This document shows, one piece after another, positions 20,672 through 57,708 of a stretch of DNA of 64,000 bases (positions are counted from its first letter, which is position 1; every line of letters starts with the position of its first letter). The notes below the pieces were generated by a model. The model had not been told where the DNA came from and searched no databases. It saw only the letters and a list, made by a program, of their open reading frames with translations. The DNA is from Candidatus Aminicenantia bacterium (GTDB taxonomy: Bacteria > Acidobacteriota > Aminicenantia > UBA2199), in NCBI GenBank assembly GCA_965225955.1, contig CBDDBX010000027.1, positions 9,057 to 73,056 on the forward strand, given 5' to 3'. A program made the translations under genes and the position numbers.

Positions 20672-22858
20672 TTGAAGAAATTTCCGGTTTATATACAGCA
20701 TGACGCTATGGATTGTGGGCCTACATGCCTGCGTATGGTTGCAGAGCATTACGGGAAAAGATACTCTCTTCAGACACTGAGAGATAAGAGTTTCATAACC
20801 AGAGAAGGTGTTTCCATGCTTGGGATCAGTGATGCTGCTGAATCCATTGGTATGAGAACAATGGGTGTAAGAATCTCTTTTAATAAACTAAAAACAGAAG
20901 GTGTTCTGCCCTGTATAGTTCACTGGAAACAGAACCATTTTGTAGTTGTGTTCCGTTTCCATAAAGGACTTGTATATGTATCTGACCCTGCACACGGAAT
21001 AGTTAAATATACAGAAGAGGAGTTCTGTGCAGCCTGGGCTACTACCAGAGATGGTGGTGAGGATCAGGGACTTTGTCTTCTTCTTGAACCTTCTCCCGAG
21101 TTCTATAAAATGGAAGATGAGAAGATAGACAAGAAGGGGCTTAAGTTTATGCTAAGGTATCTTAAACCTTATAAGAAACTTATAAGCCAGCTCTTTCTTG
21201 GGATGGCTACAGGAAGTTTGCTCCAGCTGATTTTTCCTTTTCTTACCCAGTCCATTGTGGATGTCGGTATTAACAATCAGGATATAAATTTTGTATATCT
21301 TATTCTCATTGCACAGCTTGTGCTTTTTGTAAGTCAGACAGCAGTGGGAATGATAAGGAGCTGGATACTACTCCATATAAGTAGCCGTATAAACATCTCT
21401 CTTATTTCAGATTTCCTTATGAAACTTCTGAGGCTTCCTATAGGTTTCTTCGATACGAAAATGATAGGTGATATTCTGCAGAGAATAGGGGATCATACAA
21501 GAATCGAATCTTTTCTTACCTCTTCAACTCTCAGTATAATCTTTTCGATGTTCAATCTGGTTATTTTTTCAGTGGTTCTTGGAATCTACAATATGAAGAT
21601 TTTCGGAATCTTCATTCTTGGTTCTGTACTCTATTTCATCTGGGTATATCTCTTTATGAAGAAGAGAAGAGAGCTGGACTTTAAAAGATTTGCCCAGATG
21701 TCAAGCAACCAGTCTTCTCTGATTCAGCTTATAAACGGGATTCAGGAGATTAAGCTGAATAATTGTGAGAAGCAGAAGAGATGGGAGTGGGAAAAGATCC
21801 AGGCCCAGCTGTTTAAAATCAATGTAAAGAGTATGGCTCTTAACCAGTATCAGCAGTCAGGTTCAGGCTTTATTAATGAAATCAAGAATATCTTTATCTC
21901 ATTTTTTGCTGCAAGCAGCGTGATAAACGGAGATATGACCCTTGGTATGATGCTATCAGTTCAGTATATCATCGGTCAGCTCAATGCACCTATTGAGCAG
22001 CTTATCGGTTTTGTTCATTCAGCTCAGGATGCAAAAATGAGTGTGGAGCGTCTTGGGGAGATACACAATAAAGAGGATGAAATTAATGAAGATGTTCACG
22101 TCTCAGATCTGCCTGAAGAGAAAGGGTTCAATATAAAAGATCTCTCTTTTCAGTACGAAGGCCCCCATTCAGAGAGAGTTCTTAAGAACCTCAATCTTGC
22201 TATTCCTGAGAATAAAACCACAGCTATAGTTGGAGCAAGTGGTAGTGGTAAGACCACTATGGTAAAGCTTTTACTTGGGTTCTATCCTCCTGCAGATGGG
22301 GAGATTCAGGTGGGGCGGATGAATCTTGCAGATATAAATCCTTCTATATGGCGACAGAACTGTGGTGTAGTAATGCAGGATGGTTTTATATTCTCAGATA
22401 CTATTGCACGAAACGTAGCAGTAAGTGATGAGGTTGTAGATAAAAAACGACTTGTTAATGCAGTAAAAACTGCCTGTATATACGATTTCATCAAATCTCT
22501 GCCTCTGGGGTTCAATACAAAAATCGGTGCTGATGGTCACGGGTTGAGTCAGGGGCAGAAACAGAGACTTCTTATTGCAAGAGCTGTATATAAGAACCCC
22601 TCTTTTCTCTTTCTGGATGAAGCTACTAATGCTCTGGATGCAAACAATGAAAGAGCAATTATGGATAATATGAATGAGTTCTTTAAAAACAGAACTGTTG
22701 TAGTTGTAGCTCATAGATTAAGTACAGTTAAAGATGCAGATCAGATTGTTGTACTGGATAATGGGCAGATAATTGAAATTGGCACCCATAACGAACTTAC
22801 TTCTGCCCGGGGGGCTTACTATATGCTTGTAAAAAATCAATTGGAGCTTGGTAACTGA
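20672..22858 (+). CDS. Peptidase C39 domain-containing ABC transporter (bacteriocin/double-glycine-leader peptide exporter, permease plus ATPase).
   Basis: N-terminal 'QHDAMDCGPTCLRMVAEHYG' gives the C39 Cys. Walker A 'GASGSGKTT', ABC signature 'LSQGQKQRLLIARA', Walker B 'FLFLDEATNALD'. TTG start with an AGGAG RBS. Confidence 0.85.
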   Translation: MKKFPVYIQHDAMDCGPTCLRMVAEHYGKRYSLQTLRDKSFITREGVSMLGISDAAESIGMRTMGVRISFNKLKTEGVLPCIVHWKQNHFVVVFRFHKGLVYVSDPAHGIVKYTEEEFCAAWATTRDGGEDQGLCLLLEPSPEFYKMEDEKIDKKGLKFMLRYLKPYKKLISQLFLGMATGSLLQLIFPFLTQSIVDVGINNQDINFVYLILIAQLVLFVSQTAVGMIRSWILLHISSRINISLISDFLMKLLRLPIGFFDTKMIGDILQRIGDHTRIESFLTSSTLSIIFSMFNLVIFSVVLGIYNMKIFGIFILGSVLYFIWVYLFMKKRRELDFKRFAQMSSNQSSLIQLINGIQEIKLNNCEKQKRWEWEKIQAQLFKINVKSMALNQYQQSGSGFINEIKNIFISFFAASSVINGDMTLGMMLSVQYIIGQLNAPIEQLIGFVHSAQDAKMSVERLGEIHNKEDEINEDVHVSDLPEEKGFNIKDLSFQYEGPHSERVLKNLNLAIPENKTTAIVGASGSGKTTMVKLLLGFYPPADGEIQVGRMNLADINPSIWRQNCGVVMQDGFIFSDTIARNVAVSDEVVDKKRLVNAVKTACIYDFIKSLPLGFNTKIGADGHGLSQGQKQRLLIARAVYKNPSFLFLDEATNALDANNERAIMDNMNEFFKNRTVVVVAHRLSTVKDADQIVVLDNGQIIEIGTHNELTSARGAYYMLVKNQLELGN

Positions 22859-24159
22859 TGTGTGAAGAGAATTATGACAATATCGAACTGAGAAGTGAAG
22901 AAGTTCAGGAGATAATGGGATATGTGCCACACTGGGTGGTTAGAAGTGGTATTGCTACGGTTTTTGCGGTTCTTCTGCTTCTTCTTACCGGAAGCTGCTT
23001 TTTTAAATATCCCGATGTAATAGAATCAACTGTACTTATAACAACAGCAAACCCTCCGGCTAAGGTTGTGGCTGCTATCTCTGAAAAGATTGAAGAGATA
23101 AAAGTGAAAAATGAAGAGATCGTTAAAGAGGGTGATGTTCTTGCTGTGCTCAGGAGTTCTGCAGCTGCTTCAGATATGCTTACTCTCAAGAGTGAACTTG
23201 GAGATTTCCGTAAAGGTTTTGTAAAAGACAGGAATACAGAGCTCTCTTTTAAAAATTATACTCTTGGGGATCTGCAGAGCAGATATGAGAACCTCATAAT
23301 AGCTATAAACGATTACAAAGACTTTATGGATCTGGACTATTACGGAAATAAGATCGCCGGAGCTAAAGAGAGATTGAAACAGTATCGTTCCAAAACAGAT
23401 GTTGTTGTGGAGCAGGTGAAGCTTAAAAAGAGAGAGCTTACTCTTGGAGAGAGGCATTTTAAAAGAGCTGAAGATCTTTACAGGAAAGGAATTCTTTCAA
23501 AAGAGGCTTATGACGATGCTGAAGGCAGGTGGCTGGCAGTTCAGAACAGTTATGAATCTGCCAAAGGACTGGAAGCAGATACACATATTCAGGTACAGAA
23601 TCTTAAGGAATCCATTGGAGAGCTTGAGCTCAAACAGCTGGGAGATCGCAGAAAGTATGAGTATAAGGTAAAAGAGTCTGTAGATATTCTGAGAAGCAGT
23701 ATCTCAAACTGGGAACTGAAGTATCTGCTGGTAGCACCGGTTAGCGGGAGAGTGGCATTCAGTGAATTCTGGAGTGTAAACCACAATGTAAAGGCCGGAG
23801 CAACTGTAATGACAGTGATACCTGAGGGAACAAACAAGAAAATAATCGGTAAAGTGGTTCTGCCTCTCCAGAGATCCGGTAAAGTGAAAGAGGGGCAGAG
23901 AGTTAATATAAAAGTACACAACTACCCCCATATGGAGTATGGAATGTTAAAAGGAGTGGTGCAGAAAGTAGCACTGATACCTTCTGATGACAGCTATGTT
24001 GTAGACGTATCTTTGCCGGAGCGTCTTAAAACAAATTATGGTAAGAAGCTCAAATTTATTGAAGAGATGAGAGGACAGGCAGAGATTATCACAGAGGATA
24101 TGAGGTTAATTGAGAGATTCATTAACCCTATTATTTCTCTCTTTAAAAAGAGTAGTTAA
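22858..24159 (+). CDS. HlyD family secretion protein (membrane fusion protein partner of the ABC exporter).
   Basis: 433 aa: one N-terminal TM, long coiled-coil region, C-terminal beta domain. Start overlaps the ABC stop. Confidence 0.75.
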   Translation: MCEENYDNIELRSEEVQEIMGYVPHWVVRSGIATVFAVLLLLLTGSCFFKYPDVIESTVLITTANPPAKVVAAISEKIEEIKVKNEEIVKEGDVLAVLRSSAAASDMLTLKSELGDFRKGFVKDRNTELSFKNYTLGDLQSRYENLIIAINDYKDFMDLDYYGNKIAGAKERLKQYRSKTDVVVEQVKLKKRELTLGERHFKRAEDLYRKGILSKEAYDDAEGRWLAVQNSYESAKGLEADTHIQVQNLKESIGELELKQLGDRRKYEYKVKESVDILRSSISNWELKYLLVAPVSGRVAFSEFWSVNHNVKAGATVMTVIPEGTNKKIIGKVVLPLQRSGKVKEGQRVNIKVHNYPHMEYGMLKGVVQKVALIPSDDSYVVDVSLPERLKTNYGKKLKFIEEMRGQAEIITEDMRLIERFINPIISLFKKSS

Positions 24160-24192
24160 GAAAAAAGGTTGTAAAGAGTTATATAGATATTC

Positions 24193-25446
24193 ATGGAATG
24201 GGAAAGAAGTGATAAGAGTGGTAAGGCTCTGCCCATAAAATCCTGGTGCAGAGATATTGAAAATGAAGCTTTAAAACAGGCAAAAGATCTTGCTAATCAC
24301 CCGGCAGTAGAGGGGCATGTTGCTCTTATGGCGGATTGTCATATTGGGTACGGGATGCCTATTGGCGGGGTTATTGGTTGTAAAAATGCAGTAATTCCAA
24401 ATGCAGTGGGAGTAGATATCGGTTGTGGTATGGGAGCAGTTCAGACCTCGCTGCACTCAGATAGTGTTGGAAAAGAAACTGTAAGAAGCATTCTTGCTGA
24501 AGTTAAAAAAGCAGTGCCTGTTGGAGAAGGCAGATCACATAAAAGTCCTCAGAGTTGGGATGGATTTGGAGCTTATCTGAATTCAGCAGGTGTTGAAGAA
24601 GATGACTATAAATCCAGGAAAGCTCCAGGGTGGAGAGATAAAAGGGGCTGGGAACTTGCGCTCCTTAATCTTGGGTCTCTGGGGGGAGGTAATCACTTTA
24701 TAGAACTCCAGGTAAGCAGAGATGGGTTCATATGGCTGATGCTACATTCAGGTTCAAGAAATCTTGGATACAGAATTGCAAACTACTACCATAAACTGGC
24801 ACTTCAGAAAAATGAGAGAGACAGGATTGTTCTTCCATCAAAAGAGCTGGCCTTTTTTGATGCAGAAAGTGGTAAAGGGAAGGCTTATATAAGGGATATG
24901 CAGTTTGCTCTGGAGTATGCAGCTGAGAATCGCAGAAGAATGATGCAGATTTTTAAAGAGTCTGTAGCAGAAATTATCGGGAATATTGAGTTTGTAAGAG
25001 AGATAAATATCCATCACAACTATGCATCTCTGGAAACATTTGGTGAGCAGGAGTTGTGGATTCACAGAAAAGGAGCTACTTCTGCCAGAAAAGGGGAAGC
25101 TGGTATAATTCCCGGAAGTATGGGAACAAACTCATATATTGTAAAAGGTCTTGGTAATAATGAATCCTTTCAATCCTGTTCTCATGGGGCAGGAAGAGTA
25201 ATGGGGCGTAAAGAAGCAGGGAGAGTTCTGACTCTTGAGGAGTGTAACCGTTCAATGGAAGGTGTGGTTTTTGATGGGTGGAATCACTATGTGTCTTATG
25301 GGGGAAGAAAGAGAAACAGTGATCCGGTTTTCGATTTTGGAGAAGCCCCGGGAGCATATAAAAATATAGATGAAGTGATTGCTGCTCAGAAAGATCTTAT
25401 AGAACCTGAAGTTATACTTAAACCTCTTGGGGTAATAAAGGGATAA
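24193..25446 (+). CDS. rtcB: RtcB family RNA-splicing ligase.
   Basis: 417 aa. 'ADCHIGYGMPIGGV', 'NAVGVDIGCGMGA' and 'GGGNHFIELQ' metal-binding motifs typical of RtcB. Confidence 0.7.
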   Translation: MEWERSDKSGKALPIKSWCRDIENEALKQAKDLANHPAVEGHVALMADCHIGYGMPIGGVIGCKNAVIPNAVGVDIGCGMGAVQTSLHSDSVGKETVRSILAEVKKAVPVGEGRSHKSPQSWDGFGAYLNSAGVEEDDYKSRKAPGWRDKRGWELALLNLGSLGGGNHFIELQVSRDGFIWLMLHSGSRNLGYRIANYYHKLALQKNERDRIVLPSKELAFFDAESGKGKAYIRDMQFALEYAAENRRRMMQIFKESVAEIIGNIEFVREINIHHNYASLETFGEQELWIHRKGATSARKGEAGIIPGSMGTNSYIVKGLGNNESFQSCSHGAGRVMGRKEAGRVLTLEECNRSMEGVVFDGWNHYVSYGGRKRNSDPVFDFGEAPGAYKNIDEVIAAQKDLIEPEVILKPLGVIKG

Positions 25447-25655
25447 AAAAAAATTTTGGAAAACCGGTTTTTTACAATCGGTTTATATGTTCCTGATAAC
25501 TGTTTTATATATTTCTGCTAACCGGAACCGGTAAAACTGATGTCAAAAACAGGAAAACTGAAGTTTTATGTTTTTTGAGGTCTGTTGCAACTGTTTGACA
25601 GAAACTGAATTCAACTGATAAAGTTCTCTATACAAAATATCAGGGAGAGATGTAT

Positions 25656-27743
25656 ATGAAGAGCAAATTTGGTTCACAGGTCTTTGATTTTGCTAAAATT
25701 GAAGATAAACTTCCGGCTACAATATTTAAAAAGTTCCGTAAATCTGTAGATGCCAGACGTTCTCTGGATGCAGATGTAGCAGAGTTTCTGGCTCATGAGA
25801 TAAAAGAGTGGGCAGAAGAGATGGGAGCTACCCATTTTACTCACTGGTTTTTACCTCTTACAGGAATCACTGCCGGTAAGCAGGAAACATTTCTTAAGCC
25901 GGATGGTGAAGGAAGAATAATCTCTTCTTTCTCAGGTAAGGATCTTGTTAAAGGAGAACCTGATGCCTCATCTTTTCCTCACGGTGGAATGCGTTCAACC
26001 TTTGAAGCCCGTGGTTATACTGCATGGGATCCTGCTTCTCCTGTTTTTATTGAGAAAAAAGGGAAAGGAGCTCTTCTCTATATTCCTTCTGTATATTTTG
26101 GATATAACGGGAAAGTTCTTGATAAAAAGACTCCTTTATTAAGGTCTCTCAGACTTATTAATGATGTGTCACTTAATATTCTGCGCCACCTCAATCAGAA
26201 TGTGAGCTGGGTAAAGAACATGATTGGTGCTGAACAGGAGTTTTTTCTTATAAATGAGGACGATTACAGAGCCCGTCCTGATCTTCGTACAGTAGGAAGA
26301 GCTATCTTTGCTGCACGTCCTCCTAAAGGACAGCAGATGGGGGATCACTATCTGGGAGAGATACCTGAAAAGGTGTTGTCTTTCTATGAAGATCTTGAAG
26401 AGGAGGCATTCAAATTAGGGATTCCCGTAAAAACAAGACACGGTGAAGTCGCTCCAAACCAGTTTGAAATAGCTCCGATTTTTGAAGAAGCAAATATTGC
26501 GGCAGATCACAACCAGATGTTAATGGAAATTCTGGCGAGAGTTGCACGTAAACATAAAATGGTATGTCTTTTCCATGAGAAGCCTTTCAAGTGTTTTAAT
26601 GGAAGTGGTAAACATATAAATTGGTCATTAATGGACAGTAAGGGAAGAAACCTTCTGTCTCCGGGTTCAACAAGGGGAACAAGAATCATATTTCTAACAT
26701 TCCTGGCAGGTTTTCTTGATGGAATAAAAAGACATAATGGTCTTTTACAGGCCTCCCTTGCCTCAGCAGGCAATGAATTCCGATTGGGGGGGCATGAAGC
26801 CCCACCCTCAATAATTTCAGTAAATCTCGGTGAAGAGCTGCAGACTATAATAAATAATCTGGAAGCATTTTTATCAGGGAAACTTAAAAAAGCAGAATTT
26901 CTGCGTTTTGAATCCTTTATTCCTCCTATACTGCACGATCTGTCTGACCGGAACAGAACATCACCTGTTGCATTTACAGGAAATAAGTTTGAGTTCAGAA
27001 TGCCGGGATCTTCAGCATCAATTGCCTTTCCGGTATCTGTAATAAACCTGATTGTAGGTGACGGACTTGATAGAGTTTATCGCCGGATTTCCGGTCACGA
27101 TAATGAGGATAAGGTTTTGAGTGAAATCAGTTCCATTCTTTCAGAATCCATGGATATAGTCTTTGATGGGGATAACTACGACAATAACTGGAAGGAGGAA
27201 GCTGAAAGAAGAGGCCTCTACATTCCTGAATCTGTTCCTGAAACTGTCTCAGTTATGAGAAACGATGAATCTGTAAAACTATTTGAGAAACACTCTGTAC
27301 TAAATGAAGATGAGCTTCATGCCAGAGCAGCAATTAAGAATGAAATGTATGTGAAAATAGTTGAAATGGAACTGAGGGTAGCGCGTTATATGCTAAGGGC
27401 TTATGTTATTCCCGCAGCTTTGAAGAATCAGACTATGCTTATTAATGCAGTTAAGGATTTTCCACCTGAACTTCTTAAGGCAAACAGTTCTCTTCTGGAC
27501 AATCAGTACAGGTTTATTGGTAAATTTGCTGATAAACTTGAGCGTACAATGGAGATGCTCTCTGTTCTTGATGACAACAATGAAAAGATTAAAGAGGGTA
27601 CTCCTGAAGAACAGGCTGCTTTCTGTTCTGATATTGTAAGAAAGAACATAGAGAAGACAGCTCTGGTTGTTGAAAAGATCGAAGAGAGGGTGGATCGTGG
27701 GGTCTGGACAATTCCAAGGATTACTGATATGCTTTTCCGGTAA
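25656..27743 (+). CDS. glnN: Glutamine synthetase type III.
   Basis: ~695 aa, the length typical of GSIII. GS catalytic motifs 'HGEVAPNQFEIAP' and 'FHEKPFKCFNGSGKHINWSL'. Confidence 0.8.
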   Translation: MKSKFGSQVFDFAKIEDKLPATIFKKFRKSVDARRSLDADVAEFLAHEIKEWAEEMGATHFTHWFLPLTGITAGKQETFLKPDGEGRIISSFSGKDLVKGEPDASSFPHGGMRSTFEARGYTAWDPASPVFIEKKGKGALLYIPSVYFGYNGKVLDKKTPLLRSLRLINDVSLNILRHLNQNVSWVKNMIGAEQEFFLINEDDYRARPDLRTVGRAIFAARPPKGQQMGDHYLGEIPEKVLSFYEDLEEEAFKLGIPVKTRHGEVAPNQFEIAPIFEEANIAADHNQMLMEILARVARKHKMVCLFHEKPFKCFNGSGKHINWSLMDSKGRNLLSPGSTRGTRIIFLTFLAGFLDGIKRHNGLLQASLASAGNEFRLGGHEAPPSIISVNLGEELQTIINNLEAFLSGKLKKAEFLRFESFIPPILHDLSDRNRTSPVAFTGNKFEFRMPGSSASIAFPVSVINLIVGDGLDRVYRRISGHDNEDKVLSEISSILSESMDIVFDGDNYDNNWKEEAERRGLYIPESVPETVSVMRNDESVKLFEKHSVLNEDELHARAAIKNEMYVKIVEMELRVARYMLRAYVIPAALKNQTMLINAVKDFPPELLKANSSLLDNQYRFIGKFADKLERTMEMLSVLDDNNEKIKEGTPEEQAAFCSDIVRKNIEKTALVVEKIEERVDRGVWTIPRITDMLFR

Positions 27744-48534: not shown

Positions 48535-49452
48535 ATGAAAAAAAATATTGTACAGATTCTGGGACCCACCGGAACAGGTAAAACCCGTATCACAATAGAT
48601 CTTTGTAAAAGAATCAGAGGAGAGGTTATTTCAGCTGATTCAGTTCAGGTTTACAAGGGGTTTGATATTGGATCAGATAAAATAGGAAAAGATGAAATGG
48701 AGGGGGTTCCCCACTTTATGATTGATGTCTTTGATCCGGCAGAGCAGTTTAATGCATCGATATTTCTGGAACACTCTTATAAAATAGCTGACGATATCGT
48801 TGCCAGAGGGGGAGTGCCCGTGGTATGTGGTGGTACAGCTCTGTACCATAGAGTGATGATAAAGGGGCTGTTTCAGGATAAGGGAGCAGTCAGAATCCGA
48901 CGGGAAAAACTTGAAGCCCTTGCTGATTCACTGGGAGTAGAGAGATTGTGGAACCGTGTCAGGGAGTTTGACCCGGAATATGCGGAAACTATAAAAGTTA
49001 CTGATAGAAAACGGATTTTAAGAGCTCTGGAGATCTACTACAACAACGGTATAATACCTTCCAGACTTTCTGAACATAATGTAACCCCTTATAGTGGGTG
49101 GAATTTTATAAGAATCGGTCTTGAAAGGGAGAGACAGCAACTATACAGACGTATTGAAAAAAGGGTTGACCAGATGGTTCACAAAGGCTTGTTTGAAGAG
49201 GTCGCAGCTCTGTTGAAGATCTATCCTGAGAGTGTACCTCCGTTTCAGGCAATTGGTTACAGGGAAGTTGTTCAGTATCTGAATGGTGAACTCTCATACG
49301 ACAGATCTGTTGAGCTGATCAAGCAGCACACGAGGAATTTTGCCAAAAGACAACTCTCCTGGTACAGACAGGAAGAGGATATAATCTGGTTTAATCCAGA
49401 CAAACCTGATGAAATAGTAGATATAGTTTCTGAAATTATTGCTGGTAAATGA
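48535..49452 (+). CDS. miaA: tRNA dimethylallyltransferase.
   Basis: P-loop 'ILGPTGTGKTRI'; 305 aa. Confidence 0.9.
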   Translation: MKKNIVQILGPTGTGKTRITIDLCKRIRGEVISADSVQVYKGFDIGSDKIGKDEMEGVPHFMIDVFDPAEQFNASIFLEHSYKIADDIVARGGVPVVCGGTALYHRVMIKGLFQDKGAVRIRREKLEALADSLGVERLWNRVREFDPEYAETIKVTDRKRILRALEIYYNNGIIPSRLSEHNVTPYSGWNFIRIGLERERQQLYRRIEKRVDQMVHKGLFEEVAALLKIYPESVPPFQAIGYREVVQYLNGELSYDRSVELIKQHTRNFAKRQLSWYRQEEDIIWFNPDKPDEIVDIVSEIIAGK

Positions 49453-56457: not shown

Positions 56458-56486
56458 TTGACACACCACCACATCTTTGATAGAAT
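56458..56486 (+). promoter_or_regulatory. Sigma70-type promoter candidate for the tRNA-Ser gene.
   Basis: TTGACA (56458..56463), a 17-nt spacer, TAGAAT (56481..56486); about 13 nt upstream of the tRNA 5' end. Confidence 0.45.
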
Positions 56487-56499
56487 TACTTTCGTTGAC

Positions 56500-56589
56500 G
56501 GAGAGTTGGCAGAGCGGTTGAATGCGGCGGTCTTGAAAACCGTTGAGCCTTTGCGGGTTCCCGGGGTTCGAATCCCTGACTCTCCGCCA
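56500..56589 (+). tRNA. tRNA-Ser (anticodon UGA), class II with long variable arm, CCA encoded.
   Basis: Hand-folded: 7-bp acceptor stem GGAGAGT/ACTCTCC, a D arm, anticodon stem GCGGT/ACCGT with loop CUUGAAA (UGA at positions 34-36), a ~19-nt variable arm, T arm CGGGG-TTCGAAT-CCCTG, discriminator G, CCA. Confidence 0.9.
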
Positions 56590-57129
56590 TACATCCCTTT
56601 CAAAATCACAAACTTCTCAAATCAAAGAAAATTCCATATTGAATAGATGCGTCTCAGGGATGAGAATCCCGGAGGGGTTTGATTAAATCAGCTTGCTGAT
56701 TAAAGAAACCTGAGCTTGCGAAGGTTCCCGAAGGGTGAGCGTAGCGAATCAATCTCTGACTCTCCGCCATTTCTTTCTTTTTTAAAATTACAAAATTCAC
56801 AACTTAATAATAATTTTTCATCCTTCTTTATTTCGGGATTCGAACATTTATGTAGTGATAAGCTGCGTTCCTCGCTTATTCCCATCTGCGACATTACTCA
56901 TCCTTCACTTCGTTACGTCCTTCGTTCGCAGACCCTGACTCTCCGCCATACATCCCTTTCAAAATCACAAACTTCTCAAATCAAAGAAAATTTCATATTG
57001 AATAGATGCGTCTCAGGGATGAGAATCCCGGAGGGGTTTGATTAAATCAGCTTGCTGATTAAAGAAACCTGAGCTTGCGAAGGTTCCCGAAGGGTGAGCG
57101 TAGCGAATCAATCCCTGACTCTCCGCCTC
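56590..57129 (+). repeat. Tandem array of three ~180-bp units directly abutting the tRNA-Ser 3' end. Units U1a (56590..56769), U2 (56770..56948) and U1b (56949..57127) each end in a 14-16-nt copy of the tRNA 3' end ('ccctgactctccgcca'). U1a and U1b are near-identical; U2 is unrelated internally.
   Basis: Direct sequence comparison. U1 also carries a degenerate ~40-nt copy of the tRNA 3' half ('ggttcccgaagggtgagcgtagcgaatcaatctctgactctccgcca'). Confidence 0.8.
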
Positions 57130-57167
57130 TCCGCAGAAGCAGTGAGCCTGCGAACTCCTGTAAGGAA

Positions 57168-57190
57168 TAAAAGCAAAGGACTTTGCTTTT
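57168..57190 (+). terminator. Terminator-like hairpin downstream of the tRNA-linked array.
   Basis: 'aaagcaaaggactttgcttt' followed by 'tatataat'. Confidence 0.35.
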
Positions 57191-57441
57191 ATATAATCCC
57201 GCATAATGTTTAATGCTTTCGCTTCGCTACAGATATTAAAATCGGGATTGCGGAGATGGGAGCAAGCTCCAGCTTGTCACTTTATACGATTTTAAATTTT
57301 TAAGTCTTATTGGACTTTCTAATACCACCCCACCTGGAGTACCAGGCACCCCTCCTTAAAAGAAGGGGAGTTCTGTTTGTCTTGCAAAGAGCTACCTTTG
57401 GATGAATTCGCCTTCTGGTTCAAATATGTTACGATAAGCAT

Positions 57442-57708
57442 ATGTGGTATTTATATATTCTCAGATGTTCAGACGATTCCCTCTATACAGGTATAACAAC
57501 TGATGTAGAGAAACGGATTAAAGCTCACAGAGGTGAAATTCCCGGAGGGGCTAAGTATCTGAGAGGAAGAGCCCCTTTCGAACTTGTATTCCAGGTAGAA
57601 GCCGGCACAAAGAGTGATGCTTCCAAACTTGAACTACGTGTAAAAAAATTAACAAGAAGAGGCAAAGAGGCTCTTCTGGAAGACGCCTCTTTAATAGAAA
57701 AACTCTGA
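57442..57708 (+). CDS. GIY-YIG nuclease family small protein (UPF0213/YhbQ-like).
   Basis: 'LYILRCSDDSLYTGITTDVEKRIKAH' GIY-YIG motif; 88 aa. Confidence 0.7.
   Translation: MWYLYILRCSDDSLYTGITTDVEKRIKAHRGEIPGGAKYLRGRAPFELVFQVEAGTKSDASKLELRVKKLTRRGKEALLEDASLIEKL

Follow-up and report, generated by a model that had tools for sequence, protein, structure and literature searches.

What is the tandem array that follows the tRNA-Ser(UGA) gene of a Candidatus Aminicenantia bacterium, and are its units scars of past integrations into that gene or elements in their own right? We analysed this array in a stretch of 64,000 nts of contig CBDDBX010000027.1 (assembly GCA_965225955.1; the whole stretch is hereafter called the window) from a host with a GC content of 39%. 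An earlier reading of the letters alone (the original prediction) had described the tRNA gene followed by three units of ~180 bp, each ending in the tRNA tail, and had offered two interpretations, serial att-like scars or a tRNA-linked repeat array. The array is a real feature, no chance pattern, and its first and third units, U1 and U1′, are almost certainly, judging from sequence and predicted pairing, tRNA-linked repeats (TLRs) of the RtT type. The second interpretation turned out to be nearly the literal name of this known class. What we describe is an already-known family with a new occurrence far outside enteric bacteria and with two local peculiarities, a segment resembling a tRNA variable arm and the odd middle unit, U2.

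Layout of the array

The tRNA-Ser(UGA) gene, with encoded CCA, occupies 56500–56589 on the + strand (ARAGORN; Rfam tRNA 55.9 bits) and is the only tRNA gene in the window. Its T-stem lies at 56562–56566 / 56574–56578 and its acceptor 3′ strand at 56579–56585. The last 15 nts of the tRNA, CCCTGACTCTCCGCC, were found in four copies in the window, all at the array, for a chance expectation of 0.03: inside the tRNA (56574–56588) and at 56754–56768, 56933–56947 and 57113–57127. They define three head-to-tail units, all on the + strand, each terminated by about 15–17 nts of the tRNA 3′ end: U1 (56590–56769, 180 nts), which begins at the base right after the tRNA CCA, U2 (56770–56948, 179 nts) and U1′ (56949–57127, 179 nts). 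The tail of U1 has one mismatch (T at 56755), that of U2 is exact and that of U1′ lacks the terminal A of CCA (GCCT, not GCCA). ARAGORN, Rfam and the 15-mer count thus bear out the tRNA and the three tailed units originally described, with small coordinate corrections.

U1 and U1′ are near-identical, as had been stated: 56574–56768 is duplicated at 56933–57127 with 99% identity over 195 nts (repeat D1), and the two units differ only by two substitutions and the last base. In the alignment of U2 with U1, similarity is confined to the two ends of U2. Because the U2 interior is unrelated, Tandem Repeats Finder reported no ~180-nt or 359-nt array at the locus. It did report an 8-nt tandem duplication, CTCTCCGC x2, at the distal array edge (57119–57134, + strand).

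U1 and U1′ compared with the RtT-type repeats

TLRs were described by Egan & Landy 1978 and Rudd 1999, as cited in PMC8144298. E. coli K-12 carries 22 of them at ten loci, with 3′-terminal 18–19 nts identical to the upstream tRNA or rRNA 3′ end (PMC8144298). Likewise, the array directly follows a tRNA gene, whose strand and apparent operon it shares, and its units end in 15–17 nts of the upstream RNA 3′ end (AATC/CCCTGACTCTCCGCCA). The RtT type is further recognised by core blocks in a given order with two helices, P1 and P2, and by an internal 5′ strand complementary to the tRNA-derived 3′ strand of the unit itself. U1 and U1′ carry these blocks in order together with P1 and P2, U2 does not, and in U1 the complementary strand is that of P1. 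U2 shares with TLRs its position and 3′ end only.

At the E. coli tyrT locus (L002), four ~178-nt units are each closed by the tRNA-Tyr 3′ end and score 133–137 bits apiece with the RtT model. Global alignment of an entire 178-nt E. coli unit with U1 gave a z of 9.4 (0 of 2000 shuffles), and the spacers alone of the tyrT unit and U1 gave a z of 4.35 (3 of 2000 shuffles). A covariance model, R1, was made from 39 elements of other genomes, the window sequences being left out. It found exactly two matches in the 64-kb window, both full length, U1 with 63.8 bits (E 1e-14) and U1′ with 63.4 bits (E 1.3e-14), where the E-values are rough because the calibration was short. In a permissive Rfam scan of 3 kb, the RtT RNA (RF00391) also matched full length, from model position 1 to 130, ending exactly at the U1 and U1′ ends.

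Within U1, an AU-rich spacer or trailer (56590–56644), with CCCTTTCAAAA directly after the CCA, precedes the core (56645–56769). The core comprises GATGAGAA (56659–56666), the P3 hairpin (56683–56704), CCCGAAGGG (56727–56735), GAGCGTAGCGAATCAA (56737–56752) and the closing copy of the tRNA 3′ end (56754–56769), besides the helices described below. U1′ has its spacer at 56949–57003, within D1, and its core at 57004–57128; all these features are on the + strand.

Some other readings of U1 were tried and rejected. A tpr-like small protein was discarded, the reading frame having just 11 codons. A hammerhead-like reading of GAUGAGAA...CGAA was not retained either: the canonical CUGAUGA core is absent and no Rfam ribozyme matched. 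Of the other weak Rfam matches, Plastid-psbl-rps4 is the T-arm read in antisense, and those to snoRNAs are noise.

The family in other genomes

Relatives were found by a pattern search using blocks common to the E. coli unit and U1. The pattern matched 10 prophage-edge loci in IMG/VR and at least 119 loci in species-representative genomes, and at least 131 units were counted downstream of a tRNA (pattern scan and script). The family is present in more than 100 genomes, without integrase inside arrays. Copy number varies between species from 1 to ~6 units, and the mode of unit length is 170–189 nts.

Among the matches listed, hosts are mostly Enterobacterales, joined by Neptuniibacter, Luteimonas, Stenotrophomonas, Thioalkalivibrio and Fluctibacter, by metagenome-assembled genomes (MAGs) of Oleiphilaceae, Steroidobacteraceae and Pseudomonadales, and by one Verrucomicrobiota MAG (Puniceicoccaceae, L045). 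The tRNA closest upstream is, in the same set, one for Tyr(GTA), Ser(GGA, CGA or UGA), Lys(TTT), Gln(CTG), Arg(CCG), Pro(TGG) or Glu(TTC), and the first unit of an array begins 32–110 nts past its tRNA. There, each unit tail equals the last ~17–20 nts of its own upstream tRNA, and the 7–11 nts preceding GATGAGAA are complementary to the 3′ end of the linked tRNA.

R1 also detected the E. coli lysT-operon repeats (34–55 bits) and scored the 5S-linked RrB only at 10.7 bits; RrB visibly carries a module of hairpin, CCCGGAGGG, hairpin and 3′-end copy. In a Neptuniibacter MAG (L057:376–918), an RtT-type element follows a tmRNA gene and its terminator, scoring 57.4 bits with Rfam RtT (above gathering) and 67.6 bits with R1, with a P2 that matches the tmRNA T-arm. 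TLRs are thus linked to tmRNA besides tRNA and 5S rRNA. Except for this element, the pattern matches without tRNA (Pseudomonas, Salinicola, Flavobacteriales, Prosthecobacter and others) were rejected by R1 and Rfam and are not family. In three Pseudomonas loci (L083, L110 and L115), a repeated sequence ...GCAGGCCGTTGAGAA...CCCGAAGGGYGA...AATCAAGCGGAG... matches the pattern, with no adjacent tRNA and no R1 or Rfam recognition.

A metagenome search for two TGACTCTCCGCC copies 160–190 nts apart gave four matches, of which three (L132–L134) are unrelated repeats. L135:2983–3260 (JGI Ga0307378_10042957) carries a tRNA-Ser(CGA) and one ~185-nt unit with a 20-nt copy of the tRNA 3′ end. This unit opens with TGAGAA and a GC-rich hairpin and is not recognised by R1; either a TLR that has diverged strongly or a second, U2-like type of unit may be present here.

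In Leclercia adecarboxylata (L100:4910–5097), a hybrid unit consists of the 5′ two-thirds of a tRNA-Tyr gene and the distal TLR half, joined at GGTTCGA (GAAGGTTCGA). It shows directly that the T-loop can recombine with the T-loop-like block of a TLR.

Att scars and local duplication

The family bears directly on two other origins of the array. Serial att scars, with duplicated att cores, would remain where tyrosine-integrase elements had inserted at the tRNA 3′ end and later disappeared. The last 16 nts of the tRNA, repeated in direct orientation, do look like attL/attR, U1 bears a longer degenerate tRNA copy, and U2 has a foreign interior bounded by repeats. Moreover, enterobacterial prophages sit at a tRNA-Ser fragment beside such arrays: at two IMG/VR prophage edges (L009:900–1336 and L011:880–1300), the order is the end of an integrase gene, the att site in the form of a ~45-nt tRNA-Ser 3′ fragment, and a host array of ~166-nt Ser-type units. 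In these loci, however, the array is host flank beyond the att fragment, and it is the prophage boundary calls that run over into it.

The interior of a scar would be unrelated foreign DNA, different for each insertion, whereas U1 and U1′ contain a conserved element that recurs beside many tRNAs in over 100 genomes, where up to ~6 units stand in a row and no integrase separates them; the U2 core is unrelated to anything searched. The P1 strand lies ~100 nts from its partner, unlike core-type integrase sites, and this internal helix covaries with the linked tRNA. In agreement with the earlier statement that no integrase or cargo lies between the copies, the open reading frame list holds no integrase gene or remnant, nor island cargo, within or beside the array. 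5S rRNA is not known as an integration target. In E. coli, the family follows 5S rRNA as well (PMC8144298). Family membership refutes the att-scar reading for U1 and U1′, and for the locus as a whole we hold it to be very improbable. The mobile nature of the units, which had also been suggested, is unproven.

The original prediction had proposed searching for other copies of U1 and U2, with simple local duplication as what would remain if the repeats were unique to this locus and invariant among relatives and no related element carried an integrase. RtT-type relatives after tRNAs in more than 100 genomes were found, so the U1 element is not unique; for U2, the search gave no match of its core in phages, plasmids or via R1. 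A local duplication of the tRNA 3′ flank agrees with the two substitutions and last base that distinguish U1 from U1′. It would explain copy number, not the element, given that U1 is homologous to elements in all these other genomes; as a full explanation it is refuted by the R1 match and the E. coli alignment and is scarcely credible.

Helices P1 and P2 and the variable-arm-like segment

Pairs were counted on a 41-sequence alignment (A2), on which the U1 core was also delimited. P1 closes the ~125-nt conserved core. Its 5′ strand, 7 nts immediately before the invariant GAUGAGAA, pairs with a stretch of the tail made up of the last T-loop base, the T-stem 3′ strand and the first base of the acceptor. 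In U1 this helix joins 56654–56660 (TCAGGGA) to 56753–56759 (TCTCTGA) by 7 bp, and in U1′ 57013–57019 to 57112–57118, likewise by 7 bp. Double-sided changes were observed at four P1 pairs, in 14, 7, 19 and 15 sequences. P2 (GAAnnnn / nnnnUUC), which in U1 joins 56664–56670 to 56674–56680 by 7 bp and has 7 bp in U1′ as well, was 90% paired. The whole structure was 85.5% paired, against 75.2% in shuffles (0 of 500 reached it) and at most 60% with the partner slid.

Segment 56705–56736 of U1 (+ strand) resembles the variable arm of the tRNA. A degenerate copy of a further part of the tRNA 3′ half had been noticed in U1, and it holds: tRNA positions 37–68 (anticodon-stem 3′ strand, variable arm and T-stem start) align with U1 116–147 with a z of 5.9 (0 of 1000 shuffles). 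Among 58 representative elements, the extra variable-arm similarity is seen only in the window (z 4.96, against at most 2.3 in all others) and is therefore not a family trait. It probably arose by recombination with the adjacent tRNA gene.

U2, the odd unit

U2 had been called internally unrelated to U1. This stands for its core; its spacer-like part (56779–56815, U2 positions 10–46) agrees with the U1 spacer at 27 of 36 positions (z 5). The ~115-nt core showed no relation to that of U1 in register, global, local or reverse-complement alignment, a weak reverse-complement signal (z 2.7) being gone in local alignment. With filters off, R1 did not match U2 on either strand (best 7 bits), and phage and plasmid collections gave only AT-rich chance matches to its core. 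Further features of U2, all on the + strand, are the box CGGGATTCGAA (56834–56844), in which 10 of 11 bases equal the tRNA T-stem 5′ strand and T-loop (z 2.5, weak), two hairpins (56858–56863 / 56874–56879 and 56885–56891 / 56926–56932) and the closing copy of the last 16 nts of the tRNA (56933–56948). Its predicted fold is unremarkable (z −1.4). Separately, U2-core positions 56874–56890 (17 nts) are 82% complementary to 57251–57267, 360 nts downstream and past the array, probably by chance in AT-rich sequence.

A foreign interior is peculiar to U2 among the 331 units of 150 arrays examined; the other units without the strict core motif are diverged or truncated TLRs. Judging from these alignments, U2 is the same frame of spacer and tRNA tail with its core replaced rather than eroded, since identity in the core is no higher than random, whereas the spacer can still be recognised. 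An att-type origin of U2 is conceivable but has no positive support. More speculatively, an active process may append the 3′ end of the preceding stable RNA (tRNA, tmRNA or 5S rRNA) to an insert of ~160 nts, in a fixed ~180-nt register, and U2 would then be the first captured unrelated cargo. Its length, spacer and tail would be the usual ones around a foreign core with a split T-arm, the box of T-stem 5′ strand and T-loop standing ~90 nts upstream of the T-stem 3′ strand. We consider such a process, and this view of U2 under it, a long shot; if true, TLRs would be a class of stable-RNA-templated mobile or RNA-mediated elements, not passive duplications.

Proposed mechanism and function

Taken as a whole, the following explanation, from TLR identity through co-transcription, processing and recombination to a role in cis, is in our opinion probably right. 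The array would be transcribed together with tRNA-Ser from a promoter at 56458–56486, and tRNA-maturation nucleases would cut after each tRNA-like end, releasing ~180-nt structured RNAs with C-rich tRNA-like 3′ tails. The repeated tails would recombine unequally or undergo gene conversion and thereby reshape the array, which would explain the 359-nt U1+U2 period with 99% identical U1 copies, and selection for P1 would keep the element matched to its tRNA.

The promoter is of the sigma-70 type (+ strand, TTGACA-17 nt-TAGAAT with extended TG; promoter scan 11/12), with the tRNA start 14 nts downstream. Its −35/−10 pair is also present in contig L001, of 71% identity, from Logan sample ERR15087788, which provided the sole close relative found. 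A terminator scan of the + strand gave no terminator-like site within the array. The hairpin reported after the array proved to be a perfect 12-bp inverted repeat (I13, 57167–57192, + strand, 100% complementary), a candidate terminator whose 3′ arm ends in TTTTAT and which a strict terminator scan does not flag because it is AT-rich with a 2-nt loop. Co-transcription is plausible because of this strong promoter, the lack of a terminator inside the array and the hairpin after it; we slightly favour co-transcription with the tRNA and processing over their absence. In E. coli, tyrT-repeat RNA and RrB were detected as processed RNAs, and the repeated end has been proposed as a recognition site of RNase E in the case of RrB (PMC8144298). 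As to function, a cis-acting trailer or processing module yielding a stable by-product RNA is our guess, offered tentatively.

Several observations weigh against this explanation. With the Rfam model, U1 and U1′ score only 24.2 bits (E 0.11) and 25.8 bits (E 0.047), against a gathering score of 45, and the cut-off of RF00391 makes them distant relations of the enterobacterial RtT seed rather than members. The minimum-energy fold predicted for U1 is not stabler than shuffles (z −0.28). In P1 and P2, G-U pairs are only modestly more numerous than A-C (37 versus 22), which mildly suggests that the constraint acts on the sense RNA strand. Part of the P1 covariation could stem from copied T-stem strands, not from selection. 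Two features nevertheless argue for genuine P1 pairing: pair 17-154 includes an acceptor base without counterpart in the T-arm copy, and the window P1 strand reads CAGGG where the tRNA's own T-stem strand reads CGGGG; it thus complements CCCTG by Watson-Crick pairing instead of copying the tRNA strand.

Also, most non-Tyr loci have an intrinsic terminator between tRNA and core, and many family members are therefore transcribed by read-through only. In the majority of arrays linked to Ser, Lys, Gln, Pro and Glu tRNAs, this hairpin with its T-run stands between CCA and core, in the first 40 nts past the tRNA, and recurs in every unit (L024, L025, L039, L048, L074, L120 and others); it is absent behind the CCA in U1 and in the E. 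coli tyrT units. The U2 core and its equal unit length are not accounted for. Finally, no function is established for TLRs in E. coli, where "thus far" none is known, and an early claim of a role of tyrT RNA in the stringent response was withdrawn (PMC8144298).

The units might instead be neutral or selfish DNA repeats with no RNA function, regenerated beside stable-RNA genes by unequal crossing-over and gene conversion among tRNA-like segments. A copy number of 1 to ~6 across species, the tRNA-TLR hybrid unit of Leclercia, the many truncated or decayed units, the many cores behind terminators, a U1 fold that is not unusually stable and the lack of a known E. coli phenotype (PMC8144298) all fit such repeats. 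Against them stand the core blocks and P1/P2 pairing kept in Gammaproteobacteria, the Verrucomicrobiota MAG and the window lineage despite 39% versus ~60% GC, the re-matching of P1 to at least 8 tRNA species, and the favoured wobble pairs on the sense strand. We regard this reading as unlikely, though it is the most serious of the rivals.

A role in trans appears more doubtful still. Released units could act as small RNAs or protein sponges, which has been proposed for the 5S-linked TLRs RrA, RrB and RrF together with Hfq and CsrA, or they could be tRNA 3′-end mimics for a tRNA-binding enzyme. U1 has a C-rich tRNA-like tail and alone among the 58 representatives copies the tRNA-Ser variable-arm region, and RrB binds Hfq and CsrA in vitro (PMC8144298). 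On the other hand, 19 tRNA-linked TLRs scored below 0.01 for CsrA binding (PMC8144298), no target or partner can be inferred from the sequence, and charging of the unit RNA is unlikely because the acceptor 5′ strand is missing.

Neighbouring genes and the nearest relative

The array lies between an aminopeptidase P gene upstream and, downstream, genes for a GIY-YIG protein and then a beta-lactamase-like protein. The GIY-YIG gene announced downstream was located at 57442–57708 (Pfam GIY-YIG domain, 59.5 bits). There was no sign of a link between it and the repeats at this locus, the neighbours of other family loci not having been checked, and a functional tie was rejected as unsupported.

In the relative, contig L001 ends inside the tRNA gene and gives no view of the array region. 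Contig L136 carries the beta-lactamase homologue, with neither GIY-YIG gene nor repeats next to it. Behind the beta-lactamase-like gene, L136:3766–3946 has a long inverted repeat (gtgttgttgaggtcacaaagaac ... gttctttgtgacctcaacaacac) instead of the GIY-YIG gene; synteny on the downstream side of the array is not conserved. The best named matches of three proteins are spread over several phyla.

Elsewhere in the window, 20672–25446 holds a C39-peptidase ABC exporter with an HlyD-like protein (a bacteriocin-type export pair) and then an RtcB RNA ligase gene (24193–25446); a type III glutamine synthetase (25650–27743) and miaA (48535–49452) were also noted.

Significance

TLRs have stood unexplained in the stable-RNA operons of E. 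coli since 1978, and the searchable literature regards them as a peculiarity of enterobacteria. The window provides a complete RtT-type unit in an uncultured 39%-GC lineage well beyond enteric bacteria, where length (~180 nts), spacer motif and core blocks are kept and the closing helix P1 is re-tailored to a different tRNA. Occurrences in the window, in other gammaproteobacterial orders, in a Verrucomicrobiota MAG and after tmRNA argue that the element is old or repeatedly transferred, and under constraint, which would make a stronger case for a function. The value of the finding is comparative, the function not being revealed by the finding itself: covariation across at least 8 tRNA species is material useful for the design of experiments in E. 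coli.

Comparison with known systems

The E. coli tyrT TLR, or rtT RNA (gene rttR; RF00391), is the closest known system. Its units also follow a tRNA directly, on the same strand and in tandem, with tRNA-3′-end tails, and measure ~178 nts against 180 nts here. The tyrT unit and U1 have in common the order of blocks: spacer with CTTTCAAAA, ATGCG, tail-complementary P1 5′ strand, GATGAGAA, short hairpin P2, GGTTYGA, two variable hairpins, CCCGAAGGGYGA, GCGNAGCGA, AATC and tRNA tail. Unlike the tyrT locus, the window array is linked to Ser(UGA), not Tyr, in a 39%-GC non-enteric host, and is broken by the unrelated U2. Its P3 is AT-rich, its P4 region resembles the tRNA's own variable arm, and its tpr-like frame of 11 codons contrasts with the 90-nt tpr gene (29 codons and stop).

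The E. coli lysT-valT units and the 5S-linked RrA, RrB and RrF end in the same kind of 3′-end copy of the upstream stable RNA and carry a hairpin + CCCGRAGGG + hairpin module (Rudd 1999; Stenum et al. 2021, PMC8144298). They are, however, short forms (~100 nts) without the module of P1 5′ strand, GATGAGAA and P2. RrB in addition lies between two terminators and has GGA motifs binding CsrA.

The attL/attR sites of tRNA-integrated islands and prophages are likewise direct repeats of the last 16–20 nts of the tRNA. In contrast to them, the window array is free of integrase and cargo, its units are tandem with a conserved and structured interior, and the E. coli family is also 5S-linked. The E. 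coli 3′ETS-leuZ, as cited in PMC8144298, is an RNA freed from the 3′ trailer of a tRNA precursor and illustrates that such an RNA can have its own function. It differs from the units in being a sponge for small RNAs with no sequence relation to them, no tRNA-end copy and no tandem units.

The Xanthomonas small RNA sX4 (RF02223) was described as a small RNA, not as a TLR. Its model consists of a tRNA-Ser and the start of a downstream element (...GGGGGGUGAGA) and matches the window full length at 56498–56665, with 27.6 bits, below the gathering score of 70. From this composition, sX4 appears to be tRNA-Ser plus the start of a TLR-type element.

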